Origin: Candidatus Saccharimonadota bacterium
GTDB taxonomy: Bacteria > Patescibacteriota > Saccharimonadia > CAILAD01 > BJGX01
Assembly: GCA_035329105.1 (NCBI GenBank)
Contig: DAOLHK010000001.1
Coordinates: 27,955-83,123 of the forward strand
DNA: 55,169 nt
Reading direction: 5' to 3'
The notes under the pieces are model-generated. The model did not search any database. It was not told the origin of the DNA and saw nothing but the letters and a program-made list of their open reading frames with translations. The position numbers and the translations under genes were made by a program. Below, piece by piece: positions 1 to 47,911 of this stretch (the stretch's first letter is position 1; each line of letters begins with the position of its first letter).

Positions 1-1059
1 ATCGTCCACATCCTCACCCACGGGGGGCTCAGAGGCTTCGGGCGGCTCGGGCTCGTCGGGGGTTGTCGGAGGGGTTTCCTCCGGCTCATCCGAGTTGCTC
101 GTGTCGGCCGGTGCGTTCCTGCCCCTGCGCTCGTCGACGAAGCTGATGATCGGGAGCTGATCCCGACCCTCATAGTCATCGCCCTCGTTCAGGCGGCGGT
201 TGCCATAGGTCAGCGCACGCGCTGCCTGGCCTGCCCGGAAGGGCAGGTTGTCGACATCCGACTGCTCGCCGGAGCTCATGATCTCCATGTACCGCTCGTC
301 GTGCTTGAGCAGCTCCTCCAGCAGGAGGGTCTGCCGCAGCTTGGAGCGGTAGTCCGGGAACAGCTGATCGCTCGGGGCGGCCAGCTCGAACAGCACCAGG
401 CGAGCAAACTCCACCTCGAGATCGGCGATCTCGTTGCGAAGAGCGCTCACGGCGTCGTTCGGCTCCTTCGGGTCGAAGTTGCGCTCCTTGAACTGAGCGA
501 CACGCTCGTTGAGCCACGTGTCGATCTGGGACCAGTCACGGCCCTGCAGCTCATCGAGGTACTCACCGACACCGAGGTCATCGGGGTCATCTTGCGGCTC
601 CGGCTCGACCACCAACGGCTCCGAAGAGCTGGCGGTGGTGTCGACAGCGTGTTCACCGTCGATGTCGTCGTCGCTCTCGTCGTCCGCCGTGACAGGCGGG
701 TTGGTGAGAGCGTCGATCTTGGCCTGCGGAGCCTCGATGTACAGCCCACGCGGGTCATTGGCCCGCTTGAGCGCAGCCTTCACCTTCTTCTTCTCGACCT
801 TGGTGTTCGGACCGAGAAGTTCGGAATGCTGCTCGACGTCGTCGAGGCACCGGAGTTCGATGCCACTTCGGCGGTAGCCGTCCAGCATCAGGATCTCCTG
901 CCAGGTGAACTCCGTCATCTCCACACCGTTGGCCTGCATGCACAGGTTGTACCGCTCGGCCAGCTGCCAAGCGGTCCACTGCGCACCCAAGTCGGTGCGA
1001 GGCTGCGGCTCTTCGTCGGCCGCGTCGATCTTGCGATCGACTTGTTCGTCGGTCGTCAC
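1..1059 (-). CDS. Acidic hypothetical protein, distal end cut by window edge (353 codons visible), encoded in ~65% GC DNA
   Basis: Minus-strand frame checked codon by codon: no stop from 1059 to nt 1. GTG at 1057-1059 with GGAGGGAGG ending 9 nt upstream. G/C-rich third positions. Begins MTTDEQVDRKIDAADEEPQPRTDLGAQWTAWQLAERYNL. Absent from the ORF track because it has no in-window stop. Tracked ORFs 301..1068(+), 176..517(-), 447..758(-) and 755..1180(-) look like R/L/P-rich shadow frames. Confidence 0.7.
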   Translation of the reverse strand, partial: MTTDEQVDRKIDAADEEPQPRTDLGAQWTAWQLAERYNLCMQANGVEMTEFTWQEILMLDGYRRSGIELRCLDDVEQHSELLGPNTKVEKKKVKAALKRANDPRGLYIEAPQAKIDALTNPPVTADDESDDDIDGEHAVDTTASSSEPLVVEPEPQDDPDDLGVGEYLDELQGRDWSQIDTWLNERVAQFKERNFDPKEPNDAVSALRNEIADLEVEFARLVLFELAAPSDQLFPDYRSKLRQTLLLEELLKHDERYMEIMSSGEQSDVDNLPFRAGQAARALTYGNRRLNEGDDYEGRDQLPIISFVDERRGRNAPADTSNSDEPEETPPTTPDEPEPPEASEPPVGEDVDD

Positions 1060-1211: not shown

Positions 1212-2933
1212 TTATTTTGGTTGCTTGATCCTAATAGCACTACTGCGATTAGCTACATCAAAACTACTGTCAAATGATCTCTGAGCTCTTATCATAGCTC
1301 CATCCTTATGGTATCTAGCGTGCTGAGTATAAGCACTTCCGTCACAGATCTGAGTGACACGTAATATAGCTGCAAACAGACCTGCTTGATTCTTGTTGGC
1401 AGGTTTAGACAATATGCCAGATGCTATATCTCTACTGTACTTCAACAGCTCTGATTGTTTGGACTTACTTACATGGACACTAGTAACTAGATCGCTGCCC
1501 TCACCCATCATCGATAGCATCAGCTCAACTGTTTCTTTGCGATAACCCATTTGCAAGAGCAATTTCTCAGCTACAAAGCTATTGTATAGAGCTTGACGTT
1601 GTTTATTACCATCAATCGCCACGCACAGCGACTTACCGACATCTTGCATGAATAGAAAAGTCTTGATAAATCCAACTATTTCGGCCGGAACTTTGCTGGC
1701 ATAGTATCGCTCAAACATACCCAGTACTGCCTCGGTATGTTCTTCTAAGGTATAGCCTTCCCAGGTACCAGTGCTAGACTCTAGTAGTAGCTTAAGATCA
1801 GGCGAGACTTCCTTGGCTGTGGCGATGATGTGCTCTGGTGAACTGTAGTAATCTTGTAAGACATTTCTCAGTCTCATGGCGCCATCTGCATCGAGTATCG
1901 TCTCGAATTTGTTGAGTTTATCAAATACATCTTTGAAGCTAGCGGGTACGCTTGGCTTTTCAGCTCTAGCGTGAGGGTTGGTGATAGTACTAAATTCTGA
2001 GAAGAATCCTTCAAATCCTTTGAGCATCGATGACTGCAGATCCTCTAGACTTTCTCGAGCTTCGATTTGCTGAATGGCACTTACATCCCACAATGCAACT
2101 ACGTCTTTGATACCTCTACCCAGATTGCCACTATGAAAATCTGACTGTATACCAGATATATGTGCTCTTCTAAATGTTTCCAATAAAAAGCTCTTGGATA
2201 GAGCAACGTTTAGTTTTTTCTTGGTATTCGGGCCTTGGATGCTTGCTACTGGTGGTCTATCTGTCAGAAATACAACACCAGCATCAGCTATTCTACCATC
2301 TGCTATCAATTGTCTACTATTGAACGCCTGTATATACCTGTCTATAGCTTTGTTCCAATCCGACAACTCAACATCTTTAGGCTTATAGTAAAGTGAAGTT
2401 TCACGAATAGTTTGTAGTGTATTTTTATCACGAGAGATATAGTGGGTGTTATTAATCTGTAGGGCCTGAGCGATGGTGGTCTCTATATAATTTGCAGCAA
2501 GTGATTGCCAAGGCTTGTCTGACTCCACTGGCAAACCTTCTGTCAGAGAGATGTCCGCTACCAATCTTTGACCTTCTTCAGGTGAACAATTGCTACGTAC
2601 TACAAATCTTTCTCTGTCTATCGCTTTTATTTGCTCTACAGTGGCATCCTGTGGCCTTGAGCCAGATCTGACCCTGGCAAAAGCTTCAGCGTCTTCTCGA
2701 TGTGGAGTGGCATAAAAAGTATAGCTATACACATTATGTGAACCCTTTGAATCATGAAATGGACCTACCTTCCAATGCTCACCTGTTCCGTTTTTTCTAC
2801 CATGCCACAACTCATGTATATCACTCAGTCGCGCCAGAGAGCCTTCCTGCACTAATCTCTCAGTAATATCTGGACGTACGACTTCAGTAGCCTCTTGAAA
2901 GACCGGGGAACTTACTTCGCTTCGTAGGGCCAT
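1212..2933 (-). CDS. Large hypothetical protein (573 aa) with C-terminal degenerate HD-like motif
   Basis: Long ORF, last gene of a tight four-gene minus-strand cluster (15-nt gap to 2949..3287). No family recognised. The spacing EEHTEAV ... FMQDVGKS resembles H...HD(I/V)GK of HD domains, but with Q in place of the His. Confidence 0.6.
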   Translation of the reverse strand: MALRSEVSSPVFQEATEVVRPDITERLVQEGSLARLSDIHELWHGRKNGTGEHWKVGPFHDSKGSHNVYSYTFYATPHREDAEAFARVRSGSRPQDATVEQIKAIDRERFVVRSNCSPEEGQRLVADISLTEGLPVESDKPWQSLAANYIETTIAQALQINNTHYISRDKNTLQTIRETSLYYKPKDVELSDWNKAIDRYIQAFNSRQLIADGRIADAGVVFLTDRPPVASIQGPNTKKKLNVALSKSFLLETFRRAHISGIQSDFHSGNLGRGIKDVVALWDVSAIQQIEARESLEDLQSSMLKGFEGFFSEFSTITNPHARAEKPSVPASFKDVFDKLNKFETILDADGAMRLRNVLQDYYSSPEHIIATAKEVSPDLKLLLESSTGTWEGYTLEEHTEAVLGMFERYYASKVPAEIVGFIKTFLFMQDVGKSLCVAIDGNKQRQALYNSFVAEKLLLQMGYRKETVELMLSMMGEGSDLVTSVHVSKSKQSELLKYSRDIASGILSKPANKNQAGLFAAILRVTQICDGSAYTQHARYHKDGAMIRAQRSFDSSFDVANRSSAIRIKQPK

Positions 2934-2948
2934 TGTGTCTATTTATCC

Positions 2949-3287
2949 TTAGTCGATGGGGGTTGTTTCTTTGAGCATAGCATCGACTTGCTCGTCCATG
3001 GCTAGTCGATTGTTTTCGAGTTCGTTGATGGTATCTTCTTCTATCTTGGCAGACCAGGTATCATAATTATCTATCTTGGAAATGATATAACTCTCTACTT
3101 CATCATCTTGACCAGCTTCAATCAGCTTTTCTAGCTCTGTCATATCTTCTTCGCTAAGTCTTTCACTTATCTTTTGCAATAATCTAGTCCACACTGTATC
3201 AGCAAGTTGCTGCAGCAAGTCGTCCTGGACAGCCTTGTCCATATCTTGTGCACCCAATTTTATTAATATTTGTTCACGTGTAAGCAT
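2949..3287 (-). CDS. Small acidic helical protein (112 aa), paralogue of 3306..3734
   Basis: ORF with an AGAAAGAG-like SD. Hand alignment to its neighbour: TRLLQKISERLSEEDMTELEKLIEAGQDDE versus TRVNAKLVEQMDQAQQDEYIRLIGEGDEAN. Resembles the small acidic DUF-type proteins common in CPR genomes (from memory, unverified). Confidence 0.7.
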   Translation of the reverse strand: MLTREQILIKLGAQDMDKAVQDDLLQQLADTVWTRLLQKISERLSEEDMTELEKLIEAGQDDEVESYIISKIDNYDTWSAKIEEDTINELENNRLAMDEQVDAMLKETTPID

Positions 3288-3305
3288 AGTTTACTCTTTC
3301 TTGTA

Positions 3306-3734
3306 TTAGGTATTACTTGTCACTCCAGGTGGTGGTTGAGGAGGTGGGGCTGAGCTCAAGGTCAAGAAGGGATCATTATCTACAGATGCTGAAGCACCGA
3401 CCATTTCTGTAGTGTCTTCCGTGATAGCTTCCGCACCCGATTTGATATCCGCTACGAGCCTTGATACTTCTGAATCAACTATAGATTTGAGATTGGGAAA
3501 CGATTTTTCCTTAAATGCTGTGATATTAGCCTCATCACCTTCACCAATTAGGCGGATGTATTCGTCTTGTTGAGCCTGGTCCATTTGTTCTACTAGCTTA
3601 GCGTTGACTCTGGTATTTAGTATCACAAAGAAAGTCTTAGAGAAATTCTCTTTTTCTGTTGGGCTCAAGTCATTCATGTCGAGCTGATCAAATATTTTGT
3701 CGTCTAGTATGTCTGATTTCATAGTTTGTACCAT
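3306..3734 (-). CDS. Small acidic helical protein (142 aa) with Pro-rich C-terminus, paralogue of 2949..3287
   Basis: ORF 17 nt downstream of the 750-aa gene. Shares the helical core with 2949..3287. C-terminal tail is SSAPPPQPPPGVTSNT. Confidence 0.7.
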   Translation of the reverse strand: MVQTMKSDILDDKIFDQLDMNDLSPTEKENFSKTFFVILNTRVNAKLVEQMDQAQQDEYIRLIGEGDEANITAFKEKSFPNLKSIVDSEVSRLVADIKSGAEAITEDTTEMVGASASVDNDPFLTLSSAPPPQPPPGVTSNT

Positions 3735-3751: not shown

Positions 3752-6004
3752 TTATCCGAAATGTCCGGCGGTTAAATGCTGGAAATACTGGGGTGCTAGA
3801 TCGATTTGAGGGTTTTTGAGTAGGAGTAGTGCTTCGAGCTGCTGTCTGCCTGCAGGACCGGAATTTAATAAATTATTATATGCATTATTACCTATCACAC
3901 CCTTGAGTCTAGCAATAGCTTCCGTGCGCTCTGCACCAGATACAAAGTCTCCTTTTGCAAGCCTGTCAATGAGCTCTGGGTTGTTGATAGATCCATACCG
4001 ATGGTCAGTGTCTGGTCCGGGTGTTGGAGGATTATCAATGGCATTCACCAGCTTGTAGGCGCCTATGGCACCGACTATGCCCGCTAAGGCTGCTCCGGCA
4101 CGTTTGCTCCATCTACGTGTATTGGTTTGTTTTTCTTGAGCTGTAAGTTCTTGACCAATATTTTCTTTTCTTGTCTTGTCTCTATTTGGGTCGCCAGACT
4201 CTTTGAACTTCTGAGACCCTAGGCCGAATTTCTCACTACGGGCGCCTACCATTTCTCCTACACCTCTACTTGCATTGTATGCACCATACATTCCCACAGC
4301 AGTCCTACCTCCGAAACCTAATATTGCTAAGGGGGCTAAACCAGTTACTGTACCCGTGATACCAATACCAGTAAGAGCAAGTCCTGCAACCATTCTAGTC
4401 TTAGGGTGTTTCTTGAGCCATTCATTCATCTTGGCAAGTTTGGGGTGCTCTGCTGTACGTTGACGTAGCATCTCAGCATCCACTCTGGCTCGTACCTTCA
4501 ACAACTCTTCGACTTTGACCTGGTTGAATCTAACCAATTCTTGTTCGAGTAGACTCTCCATATTACGTTGGTAATCAGCTTGTTTAGCTTGATAGTCTAT
4601 CTGTTCTTGTATCTCAGCTGCAAATTGAGCATCTGTGTAATCGCGATATTTTGGATCTCTATCAGCAGGTGCAAGTAATCTTTGGTGGTCTAGAGTTCTT
4701 TGGATAGATTCGGACTGACTCACATAGTCTTTTGATAGCTCGGAATTTTGTAGACCATTTCGCATGTTTTCAACATGCTTTTGTGATAACGCAGCACAAT
4801 AAGCTTCGAAGGCTCGATCCATGTTTTCTTTTTCTCGAGCAAGATTTTCTTTGGCTTCTTTGCCAGCAAACATCTTCTCGGATCTTATTCGTGCTGCCGC
4901 CCATCGCTCAGTGGCTTCATCATAGGCAGCTTGTGCTTCGGTGATATCAGGTATGGGTTCAATTGGACGAGGTTCTGGTTGGGGTTGAGGCTCAGGCTGT
5001 GGTTCGGGCTCAGGCTGTGGTTCGGGCTCGGGCTGTGGTTCGGGCTCGGGCTGTGGTTCGGGCTCGGACGGTTTGATTTTAGTTTTTTGCTCTATAACTG
5101 GTACTTCTATCTTAAAGTCATTCCACTCTTGGCCCTTATCTCTAAGCTTGTCCATTTCTTCCCAACTAGCGCCGCCAGTCTCAAGCCATTCTTTCAAAAC
5201 AGCTTTGTCATATTTTTTTAACAATGCCAAATCTTCACTGATTCTTGCTTTCTCATCAACATCTTCTTTACCTAGAGATGCTCGTTGATCTTTGAGATAA
5301 GTTGTCATGGCAGCAATTTCTACTGGGCTAAGTCTAACTCCTTCTACATGTTCACCTGAAGTATCCAAAAGTGCTAGCCATTGTTCTTCCCTCCATCTAT
5401 CAAGGTGAGTAGCTACAATATCAGGATCATACTTGAGTTCACCTGTCCTGCCAGAAATAACCATCTCATCATGAAGAAGTGGCTTTTCTTTACGGCGCAA
5501 ATCTTTGAGTCTTTCCCAAGATGCTGCCATCTCTTCTTTGACTTGCTCTGGAGTAAGAGTTTCGAGCGCTACAGCTGCTGACCTTTCAGGCTTCGCAGGT
5601 GTTGGCTCTGTAGTTGAGGCCAAATCTGTTTCTAATATGCCCAAATAAGCTTCAAGGGACCTAGTGGAAAGCCCTTTAGCTCTACCTTCTTCGATGTCTT
5701 TTTTTACTCCGTCGATTTTGCCTTTTATTTCGGATCTCTTATCGGCTCTCTCAAGACCTGCTTCTGTATCTGTGGTTTCGGGAGTAGCAGTGGCAGGTTC
5801 TGGTGTTTCGGCGCTTGGCGTGGGAGGTGCTGCAGGTTCACCCGTGGTGTTTGAAGCTGCAGTAGGTGTAGATGGCTCTCTTGTACCAGTACCTGGTGGT
5901 GGTTCGGGTGGGGCCATTAGTCTGGCTGCTACCTCTTCTGGTGTAGGTGGATCGAATGATTCTGCTGAACTTCCACCTGGAGTCGTCTCTACACTATCTG
6001 CCAT
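3752..6004 (-). CDS. Large membrane-anchored hypothetical protein (750 aa) with low-complexity N-terminus and PEPEPQ repeats
   Basis: P/T/E-rich N-terminus, a (PEPEPQ)n tract and a long charged coiled-coil-like middle. Gly-rich hydrophobic segments (MVAGLALTGIGITGTVTGLAPLAILGFGG; AGAALAGIVGAIGAY). About 100-aa C-terminal domain. AAGGA SD upstream. Confidence 0.75.
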   Translation of the reverse strand: MADSVETTPGGSSAESFDPPTPEEVAARLMAPPEPPPGTGTREPSTPTAASNTTGEPAAPPTPSAETPEPATATPETTDTEAGLERADKRSEIKGKIDGVKKDIEEGRAKGLSTRSLEAYLGILETDLASTTEPTPAKPERSAAVALETLTPEQVKEEMAASWERLKDLRRKEKPLLHDEMVISGRTGELKYDPDIVATHLDRWREEQWLALLDTSGEHVEGVRLSPVEIAAMTTYLKDQRASLGKEDVDEKARISEDLALLKKYDKAVLKEWLETGGASWEEMDKLRDKGQEWNDFKIEVPVIEQKTKIKPSEPEPQPEPEPQPEPEPQPEPEPQPEPQPQPEPRPIEPIPDITEAQAAYDEATERWAAARIRSEKMFAGKEAKENLAREKENMDRAFEAYCAALSQKHVENMRNGLQNSELSKDYVSQSESIQRTLDHQRLLAPADRDPKYRDYTDAQFAAEIQEQIDYQAKQADYQRNMESLLEQELVRFNQVKVEELLKVRARVDAEMLRQRTAEHPKLAKMNEWLKKHPKTRMVAGLALTGIGITGTVTGLAPLAILGFGGRTAVGMYGAYNASRGVGEMVGARSEKFGLGSQKFKESGDPNRDKTRKENIGQELTAQEKQTNTRRWSKRAGAALAGIVGAIGAYKLVNAIDNPPTPGPDTDHRYGSINNPELIDRLAKGDFVSGAERTEAIARLKGVIGNNAYNNLLNSGPAGRQQLEALLLLKNPQIDLAPQYFQHLTAGHFG
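4991..5062. repeat. Four tandem 18-bp repeats (CTCRGGCTGTGGTTCGGG) inside the 750-aa CDS
   Basis: Read directly: units at 4991-5008, 5009-5026, 5027-5044 and 5045-5062, with degenerate copies flanking (4971-4990, 5063-5068). They encode PEPEPQ repeats on the minus strand. Confidence 0.9.
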
Positions 6005-22323: not shown

Positions 22324-24111
22324 TTAGCCGACCATATCAAGTTTCTTGAGCTTGGCCTTACCTACTGCTGTCTTGCTGATATTTTGCAGATCAAGTAGCT
22401 CTTTGTATATACCAGTCTTGCGTTTGGCGAGTTCTTGTGGAGAACCTATCTCCACGACTTGACCGTTTTTGATACCAACTATAGTATCTACACCTGAAAT
22501 AGTACTAAGTCGGTGAGCGATGATCATAGTAGTACGATTTGCCATCAGTCTTTCTAGTGCACCTTGTACCTCATGCTCGGCTTTGCTATCTAAACTGCTG
22601 GTAGCTTCGTCGAGGATCAGTATAGGAGGATTTTTCATGATGGCTCGAGCAATAGCTATACGTTGCTTTTGTCCTCCACTAAGCTTCACACCTCTCTCAC
22701 CTATCTCAGTATCAAATCCCTTGGGTAGTTTCTTGATAAAATCATAGGCATTGGCAGCTTTGGCAGCGGAAATTAGTTGTTTCTCGGTGGGCTTCTTGGA
22801 GCCATAGCCGATATTGTCTTTTACAGTACCGGAAAACAATTGTGGCTCCTGGAATACTACACCTATACTAGACCTCAAGCTTTCTTGAGTCACGCTATCT
22901 ACTGACTGACCATCTATCAGGATCTGACCTGCATTTAGCTCATAAAATCGCAACATTAGATTGGCAAGTGTGCTCTTACCTTCACCCGATTCTCCTACCA
23001 AAGCTAGCTTTTTACCTGGGTCTATCGTAAAGCTCACGTTTTTGAGTACATTTTTGCCTTTTTCATAAGCAAATCCAACATTTTGGTATTCTACCCTCGA
23101 ATTACGTATTTTGAGGGGTTTTGCACCTTCTTTGTCTACAATATCGGCTTTGGTGTCCATAATCTCAAAATAGTCTTTACTGCCTGCTGTTGCACGCTGT
23201 AAGGCATCTATGATGAAACTACTACCGAATAACGGGAATTGAGCCTGAACAGATAGAGTCAGCAGTAGAGTCATAGTACCTAGGTTGTAGACCCCAATAT
23301 ATGCCTGATAAATTATTACTCCCATAATAGCTGTAAATATAATGTTCAAAACAAGCCTGCGATAGACATCGTACTTGTGCCACTGCACTGATTGAACCTT
23401 GGTTTGGCTTTCTATCTTGATTCGTTTGTTGCCATAAAACATTCGTTCTGATGCTTCCATCACAAATGATTTGACTACTCTTACTTGCACAATTGATTCA
23501 ACAAAGCGACCATTGCCGATGTCGAGGTCTTTGTTGATTCCCTCCTGGTGCTTTTGCCAACTCTTACTGCTCAAGTGAGTTATCCAGATATATATTGGGA
23601 ATATCGCTGCTAGTAATAGTGCTACTGGCCAGCTGTAAAAAGCTATGACCACTAGAGTAATCACAGTAGTCAAGAAAAACTGCACAAACCCATTGGCTAG
23701 AGTCTGCATCAGTGTAGAAATAGTAGCGATTGAACGATCAAGACGAGCCGTAATCTTACCTGTTATCTCATTGTCATAATAGCTAATTGGTAACTTCATG
23801 AGATGTTCAAAATAGCGATTTGACATCAAGGTATTGAGCTTGACACTCATCATATCACCCCAATAACCGCTTAGATTTGACAGTAGGGTCAATACAATTG
23901 ATGCAATACCACCTAGTGCTACCAATCCAAATAAATACTGCAAACCAGGTGAATTGCCATTATTTGCCGCTACAATACCGTCTACTAACCCCTTGGTAAC
24001 AAATGGCGTTACTAGATTCAGGCCAGATGTAATAACAACAACTATCGCTATAGCTGTATAGTAAGGCCACAAAACCTTGGAATACTTTATAATCTTCCAG
24101 ATTGCTTTCAT
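22324..24111 (-). CDS. ABC exporter, fused permease/ATPase (ABCB/MsbA-like)
   Basis: 595 aa. Six-TM domain plus NBD with Walker A GESGEGKST, signature LSGGQKQRIAIARA and Walker B ILILDEATS. Confidence 0.92.
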   Translation of the reverse strand: MKAIWKIIKYSKVLWPYYTAIAIVVVITSGLNLVTPFVTKGLVDGIVAANNGNSPGLQYLFGLVALGGIASIVLTLLSNLSGYWGDMMSVKLNTLMSNRYFEHLMKLPISYYDNEITGKITARLDRSIATISTLMQTLANGFVQFFLTTVITLVVIAFYSWPVALLLAAIFPIYIWITHLSSKSWQKHQEGINKDLDIGNGRFVESIVQVRVVKSFVMEASERMFYGNKRIKIESQTKVQSVQWHKYDVYRRLVLNIIFTAIMGVIIYQAYIGVYNLGTMTLLLTLSVQAQFPLFGSSFIIDALQRATAGSKDYFEIMDTKADIVDKEGAKPLKIRNSRVEYQNVGFAYEKGKNVLKNVSFTIDPGKKLALVGESGEGKSTLANLMLRFYELNAGQILIDGQSVDSVTQESLRSSIGVVFQEPQLFSGTVKDNIGYGSKKPTEKQLISAAKAANAYDFIKKLPKGFDTEIGERGVKLSGGQKQRIAIARAIMKNPPILILDEATSSLDSKAEHEVQGALERLMANRTTMIIAHRLSTISGVDTIVGIKNGQVVEIGSPQELAKRKTGIYKELLDLQNISKTAVGKAKLKKLDMVG

Positions 24112-24155
24112 TTAATCTCAGTTTAGCATGTGTCGAAAATTAAAACGAGCCCACC

Positions 24156-24181
24156 GGCCAGACCCCCGCAGGGGTCTGGCC
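24156..24181 (-). terminator. GC-rich stem-loop (11-bp stem, 4-nt loop) at the edge of the GC-rich micro-island
   Basis: GGCCAGACCCC (24156-24166) pairs with GGGGTCTGGCC (24171-24181). On the minus strand a GTTTTAATTTT tract follows about 10 nt later. Confidence 0.55.
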
Positions 24182-24200
24182 AATGAGCCGTGTCGAGGCA

Positions 24201-24240
24201 TCGAACGTATGTGTGTCAGCCGTAGCTTACATACGTTCGA
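24201..24240 (-). other. Perfect 12-bp inverted repeat with 16-nt loop
   Basis: TCGAACGTATGT (24201-24212) pairs with ACATACGTTCGA (24229-24240). It lies between the 41-codon ORF and the GC-rich terminator-like hairpin. Confidence 0.5.
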
Positions 24241-24302
24241 GTACTGCTGTCGGGGCTTCAGCCGTGAGGCTTAGGCCGGTGTTGGTGTGTGACGGGTGAG
24301 CG

Positions 24303-24428
24303 TCAGGTGCAGAGCTGGTCGGTGGGCTCGCCGGCGGCCGTGATGGTCGAGCCCTTCTCGAACAGCCGGTTCGAGGTGTCGGGCGCGGTGGTCTCGGTGT
24401 GGTACCTCGTGAACCAGGTCTGGCGCAT
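24303..24428 (-). CDS. 41-aa ORF with actinobacterial-style codon usage (MRQTWFTRYHTETTAPDTSNRLFEKGSTITAAGEPTDQLCT)
   Basis: All 41 sense codons end in G or C (counted). AAGGGGGG SD 4 nt upstream of the ATG. Too short for the ORF track. The tracked 77-aa frame (24227..24460) is R/P-rich and looks off-frame. It could be a gene fragment. Confidence 0.5.
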   Translation of the reverse strand: MRQTWFTRYHTETTAPDTSNRLFEKGSTITAAGEPTDQLCT

Positions 24429-24488
24429 GGTGCCCCCCTTGGGGTGGTTGTGTTTGCCATACCTCAGCAGTTGCTGTAGGTTATATAC

Positions 24489-24516
24489 ATTATAATCCTA
24501 GTGTTTTGAGTGTCAA
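24489..24516 (-). promoter_or_regulatory. Near-consensus sigma70-type promoter reading into the GC-rich micro-island
   Basis: Minus strand reads TTGACA (24516-24511), a 16-nt spacer, then TATAAT (24494-24489). It lies in AT-rich DNA about 60 nt upstream of the 41-codon ORF. Confidence 0.5.
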
Positions 24517-24597
24517 AAGTTATTTATAGATTTTATTTCGACCATAAAAATAGCTCTTTTATAGCATTGGCTAGGCTACAAAAGAGCTGGTATTACC

Positions 24598-24864
24598 CTA
24601 TCTTTTGGTTTTTGACCGATAGAAGGCTGGCTGAAGCGGACCAGAAATACCATATGGTCGCCCAGCCTGCTCATAGCATTCGAAGTGATATTGCTCGACT
24701 CTATCCCACCTATCACCTTCGTATATATTGCATATTACCTTACGAGGCTTGTTTCTTGCCCTATATACAATTCGCTCACCACACTGTGTACATAGAGTAT
24801 AGCACCCTGTTTCTACAAATCGCACTACTGCTCGTGTACCAAGAACCGTCTCTGACGAATCCAT
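24598..24864 (-). CDS. Small Cys-containing (zinc-ribbon-like) hypothetical protein, 88 aa
   Basis: AGGAGG SD 6 nt upstream. GCYTLCTQCGERI plus further Cys at ICN and FECY. Basic C-terminus. Second gene of a bicistron with 24892..25185. Confidence 0.65.
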   Translation of the reverse strand: MDSSETVLGTRAVVRFVETGCYTLCTQCGERIVYRARNKPRKVICNIYEGDRWDRVEQYHFECYEQAGRPYGISGPLQPAFYRSKTKR

Positions 24865-24891: not shown

Positions 24892-25185
24892 TTAGGTTGA
24901 GCTACGTGGCTTCATCAATAGAAAAACAGATACACACAGACTGAACAATAAATACACAAGTGCTTCCCTGTTGTTCTCTGCACTAATCATCGCGTATCCC
25001 ATAGTCAGATAAATCGCCCAAAGTACTCTAGGCATCATCTTGTCTATGACCCAGTCAGCTACCAACTGCTCTCTTGTCTCGGATCCAGTGGGCTCGGCAT
25101 ATCGAAGCTGACTCATAAGTCTCGGAGCCCACCAAGCCACATACAAGCTATAGAGTATCGTGATGACAATCTTGAAAAGTGGCAT
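24892..25185 (-). CDS. Small three-TM membrane protein, 97 aa
   Basis: AAGGAG SD 5 nt upstream. Hydrophobic segments at the N-terminus, middle (VLWAIYLTMGYAMI) and C-terminus (LVYLLFSLCVSVFLL). Confidence 0.65.
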   Translation of the reverse strand: MPLFKIVITILYSLYVAWWAPRLMSQLRYAEPTGSETREQLVADWVIDKMMPRVLWAIYLTMGYAMISAENNREALVYLLFSLCVSVFLLMKPRSST

Positions 25186-25380
25186 TTCAACTCCTTACGC
25201 TACTCGAAGCTGATAACTCCAAAAGGTGCGATAGTCATATAAAAATATCAGAGATAAGAGCAGCTGTCAAAGGTGGCGATACAGTATTTCGCTGAGTAAT
25301 TTGTTATGTTTTGGAGCTGTCAAGCATAACTATAAAACTCATCCCTATCTGTTGAGCGAATAATATGCACACAAAAACAC

Positions 25381-25409: not shown

Positions 25410-25541
25410 AGCGGGCGTTCTGTGGATTGGTCGATTCCACTCCCCCGCAGAACAGTACATTACATAAGTAAAGAAAGGAGATACGACGCACTCTGAACCC
25501 GCGTAACTTCATCTATATGGTGAAGCACGTATCAGAATATT
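25410..25541 (+). promoter_or_regulatory. ~130-nt structured 5' leader with mutually exclusive pairings
   Basis: GCGGG (25411-25415) can pair with CCCGC at 25444-25448 or at 25498-25502. GTTCTG (25417-25422) pairs with CAGAAC (25448-25453), enclosing the TGGA/TCCA hairpin. There is no obvious SD in front of the ATG at 25542. Confidence 0.35.
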
Positions 25542-26123
25542 ATGCGCCTTCTCAGTCAAGCAGTTGTTGCATTTGCAATGATTGCCAACCAGGTGATAAG
25601 TACGGTACATATCCCTATCACCGATACAGCTAAGGCTGCCGAAGCCCAACCTGTAGTACCAAGTAACTACACATTGACAATCAACACTACACAACCCGAA
25701 GCTCTTGAGCTCAAAGCCAACAAAGGAAACTTCGATCAAGAAGTCGTTGCTCCTTTAAAAGCCGCTCAAGCGCTCAAGGCCGCTGCCGACGCTGCTGCAG
25801 CCCAGGAAGCTGCTAATCGAGCTGCTGCAATTGCTGCTACTCGAGTAAGCTCAGCCCCTGCTGCAAAACCTGTCGTAATAGGCGGTGATGATGCTTTCGC
25901 CAAGCTTCGATTCTGTGAAGCTGGTGGTGACTACACCAAGAATACCGGTAACGGATACTATGGTGCCTACCAGTACGACATGCGTACTTGGGCTAACTAT
26001 GGCGGTTATGCTCGACCTGACCTTGCACCTCCAGAGGTACAAGACGCCAAGGCTCGTGCTACCCAAGCCGCTCGTGGTTGGTCTCCATGGCCTGCATGTT
26101 CACGCAAGCTTGGTCTATTGTAA
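25542..26123 (+). CDS. Secreted Rpf-type (resuscitation-promoting-factor-like) transglycosylase-domain protein
   Basis: 193 aa. Hydrophobic N-terminus and an Ala-rich linker. C-terminal FCEAGGDYTKNTGNGYYGAYQYDMRTWANYGGYARPDLAPPEVQDAKARATQAARGWSPWPACS matches the Rpf domain pattern (CE[SA]GG catalytic Glu, NTGNGYYGxxQ, conserved Cys pair). Confidence 0.85.
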   Translation: MRLLSQAVVAFAMIANQVISTVHIPITDTAKAAEAQPVVPSNYTLTINTTQPEALELKANKGNFDQEVVAPLKAAQALKAAADAAAAQEAANRAAAIAATRVSSAPAAKPVVIGGDDAFAKLRFCEAGGDYTKNTGNGYYGAYQYDMRTWANYGGYARPDLAPPEVQDAKARATQAARGWSPWPACSRKLGLL

Positions 26124-26148
26124 GACTGTTCTAACAACTAAATAATAC

Positions 26149-26176
26149 AAAAGCCTCCTGTCAAAAGGAGGCTTTT
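26149..26176 (+). terminator. Rho-independent terminator after the Rpf-like gene
   Basis: AAAAGCCTCC (26149-26158) pairs with GGAGGCTTTT (26167-26176), followed by a T-rich run. Confidence 0.7.
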
Positions 26177-26177
26177 G

Positions 26178-26206
26178 TTGTACTAATTATTGTTTTGTTG
26201 TAGAAT
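26178..26206 (+). promoter_or_regulatory. Candidate promoter of the 26242..26662 bicistron
   Basis: TTGTAC (26178-26183), a 17-nt spacer, then TAGAAT (26201-26206). Confidence 0.45.
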
Positions 26207-26241
26207 TATCCAGCACCTATCGATACAACAAGGAGATTTCG

Positions 26242-47501: not shown

Positions 47502-47572
47502 AGTTTCAATTCCTGCATGGATGTGCAGGTGGCTCACGAGATAGTGAGTATCAGAGCAAGGAGATGAGACGG

Positions 47573-47911
47573 ATGTCTTATCATCACGCAGTTGAAATCA
47601 CCAACGGACCGTCGCTACATGACATGAATGGCTCGGTCATGTACGGGCCCAAGATGAGGCCAGTATCTCTCCGCCTTCACTACACCCACACGGGTGAAGG
47701 CGAGGAGCTAAAGGGCTGGGTCGAGGCAATGGTGCTTACCAGGCCTGTTGCCGATCGTTGTCGGTGGTTCATCCGCTTCAGGATCGCTCAAGAACGTGGT
47801 GACTTAGGGCCGCGCTACCGGCACTTCTACTACGACTCGTACAACCGCGAGGGGTTCGAGCTGCCAGACGATCACCCGATGTGCCTGCTCGAGCAGTTCC
47901 TCTACTGCTGA
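47573..47911 (+). CDS. Orphan hypothetical protein (112 aa) in ~57-60% GC DNA
   Basis: AAGGAG lies 9 nt upstream of the ATG at 47573, whereas the tracked ATG at 47564 abuts the SD. One 60-nt line (47641-47700) counts 36 G+C. No family recognised. Confidence 0.6.
   Translation: MSYHHAVEITNGPSLHDMNGSVMYGPKMRPVSLRLHYTHTGEGEELKGWVEAMVLTRPVADRCRWFIRFRIAQERGDLGPRYRHFYYDSYNREGFELPDDHPMCLLEQFLYC

Follow-up and report, generated by a model that had tools for sequence, protein, structure and literature searches.

A GC-rich micro-gene island of possible high-GC ancestry upstream of an ABC exporter gene in a Saccharibacteria chromosome

The ultrasmall Saccharibacteria parasitize Actinobacteria; a large part of their accessory genes is unexplained, and their genetics has only recently become possible. 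The 55,169-nt stretch of Saccharibacteria DNA analyzed here over its full length (contig DAOLHK010000001.1; hereafter the window) has a mean GC content of 41%, and it contains, directly upstream of an ATP-binding cassette (ABC) exporter gene, an island of ~340 bases (~24130-24462) with a GC content of 62-72%, or 60-75% in 40-nt windows, and sharp edges on both sides. In 100-nt windows, the GC content is 0.69-0.71 at 24250-24399 compared with 0.30-0.42 on either flank. The island holds a complete mini-gene for a 41-residue peptide, which is read on the minus strand. This raises the questions of what such a unit is, how it came to have and keep its composition, and whether it has anything to do with the exporter next to it. 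The original prediction, which was made from the DNA letters only, had described a GC micro-island embedded in AT-rich DNA, and all of the elements that it listed were found where it had placed them.

Our reading, held with moderate confidence, is that the Saccharibacteria chromosome carries in this island a conserved micro-gene that is accessory and autonomous and has high-GC ancestry. According to this reading, a consensus sigma-70 promoter would drive a ~340-nt transcript with a 54-nt leader, in which the ribosome-binding site would be partly paired, and the 40- to 41-codon open reading frame (ORF) would be translated to a peptide that is hydrophilic, rich in threonine, and, by prediction, disordered. 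The GC-rich 3' untranslated region (UTR) would form two conserved hairpins, the second of which would be a very strong terminator that insulates the exporter, and the exporter would be transcribed from its own extended -10 element with a leaderless start. The unit would travel with a gene for an 88-aa zinc-ribbon-like protein as a cassette located between an Rpf-like transglycosylase gene and the exporter. Because its amino-acid sequence diverges fast, our guess is that the peptide serves a strain-specific interaction with hosts or competitors.

The island and its transcription unit

The window is part of a Saccharibacteria chromosome, because ribosomal protein S2 is encoded in it, EF-Ts and RRF are encoded downstream in the relatives' loci, and the closest homologs of the ABC exporter carry Saccharibacteria or Patescibacteria names. 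An Rpf-like transglycosylase is also encoded among the neighbors. The exporter locus was taken from relatives at decreasing exporter identity, which yielded 17 loci in all (numbered with the prefix L). At least nine further assemblies from different samples (L001, L003, L007-L010, and L015-L017) carry the island in the identical position. Among them are relatives whose exporters are 86-87% identical to that of the window (L007, to which L008 and L009 are equal; L010, L016, and L017; and the short contig L015). Four diverged alleles were recognized, and in every one of them G or C occupies 100% of the third codon positions (GC3). Their peptides are MRQTWFTRYHTETTAPDTSNRLFEKGSTITAAGEPTDQLCT in the window, MRNLWFDTRQTETTQPTTRADVGQGSTFATAAETTDQLRT, MRQTWFDTRHRTETTQPTDRADVGQGSTFATAAETTDQLRT, and MRLNWFDTRHRTETTQPTDPADVGQGSTFATAAETTDQLRT, with a near-copy in L017; the alleles of L007-L009, L010, L015, and L017 are 40-41 aa long, and the peptide of the window is 49-57% identical to the others.

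Abrupt composition steps at both edges of the island are what an assembly chimera would leave, in which high-GC reads of another organism were wrongly fused into a low-GC contig. We give this explanation virtually no chance. Over the island junctions, L001 (ERZ15185866) and L003 (ERZ27258486) are 99.98-100% identical to the window, with L001 covering both junctions and L003 covering the exporter-side junction. Identical junctions were found in independent assemblies of separate projects and assemblers (ERZ15185866, ERZ27258486, JGI 3300043411, JGI 3300006092, SRR35185575, SRR17318456, SRR29005681, SRR25435850, and ERZ1026805), and they are present in the diverged alleles as well. The earlier assertion that the island is not a contig-end artefact is thus upheld by the independent contigs L001 and L003, and misassembly, which had been named beforehand as a way in which the prediction could fail, is excluded as far as assemblies can show.

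The minus-strand transcription unit that had been proposed, with its promoter, Shine-Dalgarno (SD) sequence, ORF, hairpins and terminator, was confirmed in all its parts at the level of sequence. The sigma-70-type promoter (24489..24516, minus strand, as are all features of the unit) consists of TTGACA (24516-24511), a 16-nt spacer and TATAAT (24494-24489); it matches the consensus at 12 of 12 positions, its spacing falls within the 16-18 nt of sigma-70-type promoters, and both hexamers and spacing are kept in L007, L015, and L017. Transcription is predicted to start near 24482. A short palindrome, CAGCAACTGCTG (24465..24476), is located at about +6 of the predicted transcript and might form a 5' hairpin or serve as an operator-like site; this helix is kept in the three variants with letters there. 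No second copy of the palindrome occurs in the window, and an operator regulon was rejected on this ground. The predicted 54-nt leader ends at the ATG at 24428. Four nucleotides before this ATG lies the ribosome-binding site AAGGGGGG (24440-24433, within the region 24433..24444), the G run of which is able to pair with CCCC at 24444-24441 to form a 4-bp mini-hairpin. This helix is invariant in 4 of 4 variants, and the block around it reads CAACAACCACCCC in the L007, L010, and L015 alleles and CACAACCACCCC in the window.

The 41-codon ORF encoding MRQTWFTRYHTETTAPDTSNRLFEKGSTITAAGEPTDQLCT extends, with its TGA stop, over 24303..24428. In every allele the TGA is found in the base of a small hairpin (UGACG...CGUCA; 24290-24305 in the window and the equivalent positions in L007, L010, and L015), the loops of which differ between alleles and which has one mismatch in L007. 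The first part of the 3' UTR (24241..24302) is C-rich and weakly conserved, with ~45-50% identity between alleles and a 23-nt indel relative to the L007 type; it is GC-rich in every allele and has no significant fold (z -0.6). It is followed by hairpin B (24201..24240), in which a perfect inverted repeat (24201-24212/24229-24240) gives a 12-bp stem, TCGAACGTATGT/ACATACGTTCGA, with a 16-nt loop and a fold z of -3.7. The outer 8 bp of its stem (TCGAACG.) are conserved in all alleles, and one compensatory pair as well as several wobble-preserving changes were found in it (helices 12-13). The intrinsic terminator (24136..24189) has a 19-pair stem (24189-24148) with 11 perfect GC-rich core pairs, GGCCAGACCCC/GGGGTCTGGCC, and the loop TGCG; the stem is followed by CGTTTTAATTTT, with the T tract at 24145-24136. 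Its free energy is -42.5 kcal/mol, its fold z is -7.2, and three fully compensatory pairs separate the window from the other alleles, with 100% of the aligned cells of this helix (helix 14) paired. It therefore has the GC-rich stem-loop, the directly following U tract and the evolutionarily maintained stem of an intrinsic terminator. Promoter, CCCC/GGGG region of the ribosome-binding site, ATG, 40- to 41-codon ORF, TGA, hairpin B, and terminator are common to the island carriers.

The reading frame and its G/C-ending codons

All 41 sense codons of the ORF end in G or C, and the GC content by codon position is 0.46/0.59/1.00. The GC3 of the resident long ORFs is 0.38 +/- 0.07, in contrast to 1.00 in the micro-ORF, and the codon-adaptation index against resident genes is 0.47 for the micro-ORF and 0.745 +/- 0.019 for the residents. 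These values bear out the earlier claim of a codon usage that does not belong to the resident genome and resembles the usage in an organism of high GC content. The period-3 G/C pattern extends only from the ATG to the stop in all alleles. In the window, G or C is found at 6-10 of 12 in-frame third positions just upstream of the ORF and at 11-16 of 20 just downstream, and in all five sequences compared, GC3 in the same phase is 100% in the ORF, 50-83% upstream, and 55-80% downstream.

The constraint that is specific to the frame is also seen in the indels. Those in the ORF are all 3 nt long (three between the window and the L007 type, and a fourth between L007 and L010), whereas those in the UTRs are of mixed length (1, 2, 3, 8-9, and 23 nt). 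The start, the TGA stop, and the frame are kept in all alleles, and together with the spacing of the ribosome-binding site they are as expected of a protein-coding gene. The peptide is hydrophilic, near neutral, and rich in threonine (10 of 41 residues). The 22 invariant residues among the 41 are concentrated at its two ends, and it varies quickly at a few positions, such as residues 3-4, which are NL, QT, or LN.

The 5' UTR and ORF fold no better than shuffled sequences (z -1.1 to +0.9; for the ORF region, -0.7, +0.4, and -1.1), and comparison of the alleles revealed no compensatory pairs in ORF helices, only pair-breaking changes. Given the conservation of the ribosome-binding site and of the start, stop, and frame, the 3-nt indels, and the limitation of the wobble pattern to the ORF, we conclude that the unit is most probably a small ORF that is translated and has structure at its 3' end. 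A small peptide gene, which was one of the identities offered by the original prediction, would thus be the best reading. Another of them, a remnant of the N-terminal part of a gene, is contradicted by the conserved start, stop, and frame and by the absence of any longer homolog in the searches. Three other frames or readings were considered and rejected: an alternative 77-aa ORF (24227..24460), the ATG of which is missing in other alleles; an antisense 68-aa ORF (24289..24495), which merely shares wobble sites with the real frame; and selenocysteine insertion or read-through at the TGA, as the downstream frame is not conserved.

The strength of the 3' hairpins invites another view, namely that the unit specifies a functional RNA, either a small regulatory or a dual-function one, in which the GC-rich transcript, with its two conserved 3' hairpins and its single-stranded stretches rich in C, is active and the ORF is incidental or a side function. 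The whole transcript folds far better than its shuffles (z -6.5), compensatory changes are found in hairpin B and the terminator, and the transcript is rich in C (37-40%) and poor in U (11-14%). The strong promoter, a terminator typical of small RNA (sRNA) genes, a ratio of nonsynonymous to synonymous change (dN/dS) above 1 overall, and the lack of a predicted peptide fold would also be accommodated. The structure signal is, however, wholly located in the two 3' hairpins, with the 5' UTR and ORF behaving like shuffles, and a model of a structured ORF was rejected on fold z-scores near zero. No Rfam family is matched even at E <= 10: searches against Rfam 15 yielded no match in the window at the gathering thresholds, with only chance-level matches (E >= 1.1) in 23900-24750, and a scan for tRNA and tmRNA found nothing. 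A conserved structured RNA, which the earlier note had considered as an outcome that would count against coding DNA, was accordingly not encountered in Rfam. A functional RNA would also leave the period-3 pattern from ATG to stop, the well-spaced SD sequence, and the 3-nt indels unexplained, and we regard it as rather unlikely.

The translated micro-gene, which remains the preferred reading, has one property that sets it apart, which is that its GC-richness has persisted while the alleles diverged. The ORF is only ~70% identical in nucleotides between alleles, yet no A or T is found at any third position. On the minimal tree of the four alleles, all third-position changes (11 of 11) are exchanges between G and C. 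In the neighboring exporter gene, no more than 9-10% of the changes involving G or C at four-fold sites are of this kind, with A or T gained or lost in the others, and the probability that 11 of 11 arose by chance is ~2e-12 to 8e-12. In L004, a close relative that lacks the island, the terminator and the 3' hairpin-B arm are still found. Thirteen sites set this remnant apart from all four alleles, and at 13 of 13 the islands have G or C and L004 has A or T. Because all of the wobble changes are G<->C and all of the changes in the remnant are from G/C to A/T, the GC-richness is maintained rather than merely recent. Either selection bars A and T as long as the unit stays whole, or a high-GC genome is involved, in which the alleles diverged or from which they are refreshed. 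With GC3 of 100% next to UTRs and other non-coding parts of 60-65% GC, the composition looks more like high-GC ancestry than general selection for GC.

The exporter and the accessory cassette

The ABC exporter (22324..24111, minus strand) is an MsbA-like half-transporter with the Pfam domains ABC_membrane and ABC_tran, and its NCBIfam matches are below the cut-offs. It is the downstream neighbor of the micro-gene, lies outside the unit, and was found in every relative, both those that have the island and those that lack it. The extended -10-like element TGcTAAACT (24120..24128, minus strand) is located 8 nt before its ATG and is conserved as TGATAAACT in L004, L005, L007, L010, and L015, regardless of whether the island is there. 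The same applies to the last ~45 nt before the exporter ATG, which comprise the 3' arm of the terminator, the T tract, TGnTAAACT, and 8 nt. In the window, 29 of 48 genes have no SD sequence, and a -10-like box 6-10 nt before the start is the commonest layout (for example, at starts 11904, 14578, 16967, 33654-side 32587, 43865, and 51004), which suggests that leaderless mRNAs are the norm in this genome. The conservation of the proximal ~45 nt where the island is absent and the frequency of the leaderless layout make it most likely that the exporter is transcribed from an extended -10 promoter of its own into an mRNA with no leader or almost none.

It had been suggested that the island may have displaced the promoter of the exporter, and comparison of the upstream region in relatives had been proposed as a check. 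The comparison found the island at the same place in some relatives and absent from others. It speaks against displacement, as the last ~45 nt are conserved in the relatives without the island and the exporter appears to keep its own extended -10. The strong terminator may insulate the exporter from the consensus promoter of the micro-gene. Consistent with such an insulating role is the terminator remnant of L004, where the micro-gene promoter is absent and the terminator is weaker and AT-shifted (-22.7 versus -42.5 kcal/mol).

The order of promoter, short ORF, hairpins, terminator, and gene is that of classical attenuators, the peptide is rich in threonine (10 of 41 residues), and the T tract ends only 25 nt from the exporter ATG. 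The unit could therefore be a leader-peptide attenuator, in which translation of the short ORF decides whether the terminator forms and hence whether the exporter is reached by read-through. Against this, hairpin B follows the stop codon at a distance of 62 nt (window) to ~85 nt (L007 type), and the terminator at more than 110 nt; a terminating ribosome could therefore touch neither of them. When nascent transcripts of the four alleles were folded, no conserved antiterminator pairing for the 5' arm of the terminator was found, and the terminator itself is extremely stable. Furthermore, a conserved extended -10 precedes the exporter ATG at the spacing of a leaderless start, and both the exporter and its proximal 45 nt are kept in relatives without the ORF. 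Mutually exclusive pairings, an ORF that abuts the first stem, and dependence of the gene on the leader promoter, which characterize attenuators, thus all appear to be missing, and we consider attenuation very improbable. Only in the window allele do ORF codons 2-5 share 8 identical nucleotides with the terminator arm, and this was treated as a coincidence.

The distribution of the micro-gene is patchy. The island and the gene for an 88-aa Cys/His-rich, zinc-ribbon-like orphan protein (24598..24864, minus strand) co-occur, and both are absent from relatives whose exporters are 97% (L004), 93% (L005 and L006), 83%, 80%, and 76% identical to that of the window. The 88-aa gene is present in the L007 and L010 lineages and absent in L004 and L005, it has only a weak match to Zn_ribbon (E 0.02), and a hairpin terminator of its own can be read at ~24552-24588. 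Between L004 and the window, high-identity homology breaks at 25298 and resumes at 24156. A membrane-protein gene is found between these breaks in both, with only ~69% identity, whereas the zinc-ribbon gene, the promoter, and the micro-gene are found in the window only. The gene for this 97-aa small membrane protein (24892..25185, minus strand) is located upstream of the cassette and has homologs in relatives with and without the island. Because the island and the zinc-ribbon gene are jointly missing from close relatives, the island is part of a swappable accessory cassette in a variable, recombination-prone slot, which is bordered by the Rpf-like transglycosylase gene and the ABC exporter gene.

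The locus is a recombination mosaic: lineages that are 50-85% identical in other genes have, for example, transglycosylase genes with 95-99% identity. Over the Rpf-like transglycosylase gene of the window (25542..26123; region 25430-26214), the identity with the L007 and L010 lineages is 86-99% and mostly >= 94%, a pattern that points to recent exchange or a sweep. The N-terminal and transmembrane portion of the exporter (first 100 codons, 23812-24111 in the window; 2501-3330 in the comparison of L007 with L010) is hypervariable between otherwise close lineages: between L007 and L010, the amino-acid identity is 78% in residues 1-100 compared to 95% in the ATPase domain. In L011, a relative without the island, positions 700-1540 contain other GC-rich small ORFs upstream of the exporter as well as GC-rich hairpin terminators, one of which (867-885) resembles the terminator arm of the island (CACGGCTC..GGCC..CCCC).

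A small peptide gene next to genes for a small membrane protein and an ABC exporter resembles a bacteriocin locus. The peptide might accordingly be a bacteriocin, a pheromone, or an effector that is secreted by the adjacent transporter, with the 97-aa protein as an immunity or accessory factor, in which case its fast diversification would mirror strain or host specificity. The quick changes at residues 3-4 and the likewise hypervariable first 100 residues of the exporter would fit this scheme. The peptide is, however, hydrophilic and near neutral, with neither a double-glycine nor another known leader and with no core of hydrophobic or cationic character; a C39 peptidase domain is missing from the exporter, no modification enzymes are encoded nearby, and no matches were obtained in Pfam, NCBIfam, or PADLOC. 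The exporter and the membrane protein also persist in relatives without the peptide. The features of ribosomally synthesized and post-translationally modified peptides or of bacteriocins were not found either, as the alignment contains no leader motif, the exporter has ABC_membrane and ABC_tran only, and the neighbors are orphans. A secreted peptide therefore seems improbable to us. A lasso peptide with a Gly1...Glu9 core was considered separately and rejected, as there is no Thr at position -2 and there are no B and C enzymes.

Origin of the unit and comparison with known systems

Its composition and codon usage are those expected of horizontal transfer from Actinomycetota, and no donor homolog was found. 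The peptide and then a three-allele profile, searched against 5.8 billion protein clusters with a word index, returned only the three entries of the clade itself, and an exhaustive phmmer search of 1.84 billion representatives returned only the query. It should be noted that a 41-aa query is blind to relatives below ~55% identity and that phmmer missed even the L007 allele. Searches of phages and plasmids with blastn and tblastn, using two alleles, yielded only chance-level matches. A codon-degenerate pattern scan of 185,579 GTDB species genomes yielded one chance match, in a Zetaproteobacteria metagenome-assembled genome that has in common with the query only the nine residues used; this motif, TWFTRYHTE, was later found to be specific to the window allele. 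Pattern scans of IMG/VR viral contigs and of JGI metagenome contigs found nothing, the latter in a collection that evidently lacks even the JGI contigs L007 and L017. The host origin that had been claimed was thus left without an actinobacterial, phage, or plasmid homolog in the BLAST, protein, and pattern searches. A mobile element, such as a remnant of a miniature inverted-repeat transposable element or an insertion sequence, was rejected on the grounds that the window contains no second copy or related repeat and the 17 loci contain no paralog. No transposase or reverse transcriptase was found near the island, and a target of a diversity-generating retroelement was likewise rejected, as neither a template repeat nor a reverse transcriptase was found.

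Saccharibacteria are naturally competent and grow on Actinobacteria (PMC10633639), which makes uptake of host DNA a plausible route for the micro-gene, although this is general background and not evidence for the locus. The same biology would serve a recent, passive capture of DNA of an actinobacterial host or of its phage behind a resident promoter, whether expressed or not, with a composition that has not yet adapted. GC3 of 100% together with 60-65% GC in non-coding parts would be a gene plus flank of a ~70% GC genome; other high-GC orphan genes exist in the window (1..1059, GC3 0.84; 47564..47911, GC3 0.71), and the presence among relatives is patchy. The idea that the fragment was recently captured, which had been put forward at the outset, does not agree with the finding of the unit at the same locus in four diverged alleles, each with GC3 of 100%. 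These alleles occupy an identical position and have homologous promoters, UTRs, and terminators, and therefore point to one old insertion rather than to recent captures. Their divergence is large (ORF ~70% identity in nucleotides, part of the 3' UTR ~45-50%) without A or T at third positions, the remnant in L004 has A or T at 13 of 13 differing sites, and no donor was found in 15 billion proteins, phage and plasmid records, and one scan of 185,579 species genomes. Recent capture is, in our judgment, distinctly improbable, and an old acquisition from a high-GC donor is the likeliest origin.

A further idea starts from the persistence of G and C at the wobble positions and holds that the micro-gene is kept in the codon dialect of the host for a reason that is linked to episymbiosis. 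In one variant it would be refreshed repeatedly through gene conversion by homologous host DNA that is taken up by natural competence; in the other, the transcript or the DNA would act inside or against the high-GC actinobacterial host, and selection would hold all wobble positions at G/C against a genome of 41% GC. If true, this would be a new kind of compositional mimicry between epibiont and host. We think it highly doubtful.

Several observations weigh against an old, translated, and constrained micro-gene, and they should be considered together. An excess of synonymous change, as purifying selection on a protein would produce, was not found in the allele comparisons: dN/dS is 1.5-2.3 for the window allele versus the others and ~0.9-1.9 among the close alleles. 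AlphaFold2 predicted neither a fold nor secondary structure for the peptide (predicted local distance difference test, pLDDT, 51), and an open 41-codon frame is not improbable in U-poor, GC-rich sequence (our estimate is ~0.4). Only four independent alleles are at hand and three of them are close to each other, which gives the comparative tests little depth. The synonymous divergence (dS) of the ORF, 0.15-0.24 compared to 1.6-1.7 in the ABC gene, could be low partly through later exchange of the island between lineages and not through constraint. The ABC gene as a molecular clock for dating the alleles was abandoned because the loci are recombination mosaics. Transcription and translation of the unit are deduced from sequence signals, and a high-GC ancestry for which the searches returned no donor is unproven.

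Two more regions of unusual composition were noticed in the window. A second and larger high-GC island (1-1093, 64% GC) contains a minus-strand ORF (1..1059, 353 aa, GC3 0.84) that has an SD-led GTG start, runs off the start of the window, and is served by an AT-rich TTGACA promoter near 1170; it had no matches in Pfam, PHROGs, NCBIfam, PADLOC, phages, or plasmids. The third compositionally odd gene (47564-47911) is a 115-aa orphan ORF with 59% GC, GC3 of 0.71, and a codon index of 0.54, which also sits behind an AT-rich TTGACA promoter. Elsewhere, five tandem copies of an 18-nt unit (GGCTCAGGCTGTGGTTCG-like) at 4953-5072 lie inside the minus-strand ORF 3752..6004 and probably encode a repetitive Pro/Glu-rich linker.

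What the locus offers is a clean case with a built-in control: the wobble changes of the micro-gene are 11 exchanges of G and C, whereas the leftover in a relative has gone to A or T at 13 of 13 sites. This points to synonymous sites of a micro-gene that are under selection or undergo recurrent templated repair, an effect that is rarely demonstrable. The hypervariable slot, with the peptide, the zinc-ribbon gene, and the N-terminus of the exporter, may be involved in host or strain specificity, and if the peptide or the RNA is functional, the locus is a handle on the interaction between epibiont and host.

Among known systems, the dual-function sRNAs and small-protein genes with structured 3' ends, such as SgrS/SgrT, RNAIII/delta-hemolysin, and SR1/SR1P, are similar to the micro-gene in having a short, autonomous, and strongly terminated transcript, an SD-led ORF of ~40 codons, and conserved 3' hairpins. 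The micro-gene differs from them in that it has no sequence or Rfam relationship to them, that no target or base-pairing seed was identified, and that its extreme codon bias has no counterpart there. Leader-peptide transcription attenuators, which include the thr, trp, and erm-type leaders, are also made up of a short ORF with hairpins and a terminator behind it and are located directly before a gene. In the micro-gene, however, the end of the ORF is too far from the hairpins and there is no alternative pairing, and the exporter has its own conserved promoter and occurs without the leader in relatives. Class II and leaderless bacteriocin loci consist of genes for a peptide, a small membrane immunity protein, and an ABC exporter, and they are matched by the micro-gene in neighborhood, peptide size, and rapid allelic diversification. 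In contrast to their products, the micro-peptide is hydrophilic, threonine-rich, and uncharged overall; neither a leader motif nor a peptidase domain is present, and the exporter does not depend on the peptide being there.

The high-GC genes that episymbiotic Saccharibacteria have acquired horizontally, through gene flow from their Actinobacteria hosts and natural competence (PMC10633639), are alike in their sharp islands, host-like codons, patchiness, and recombination-prone slots. In comparison with them, the micro-gene has no findable donor or homolog, measures only 340 bp, is a complete micro-gene wired to a resident-type promoter, and keeps GC3 at 100% through divergence, with no drift to the resident composition. 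The micro-gene thus represents a new orphan family; its general kind is familiar, and one of its evolutionary properties is unusual. What is new here is that the unit is both conserved and accessory, that it is independent of the exporter, and that its wobble positions have been held at G/C, with a decayed remnant as a natural control.

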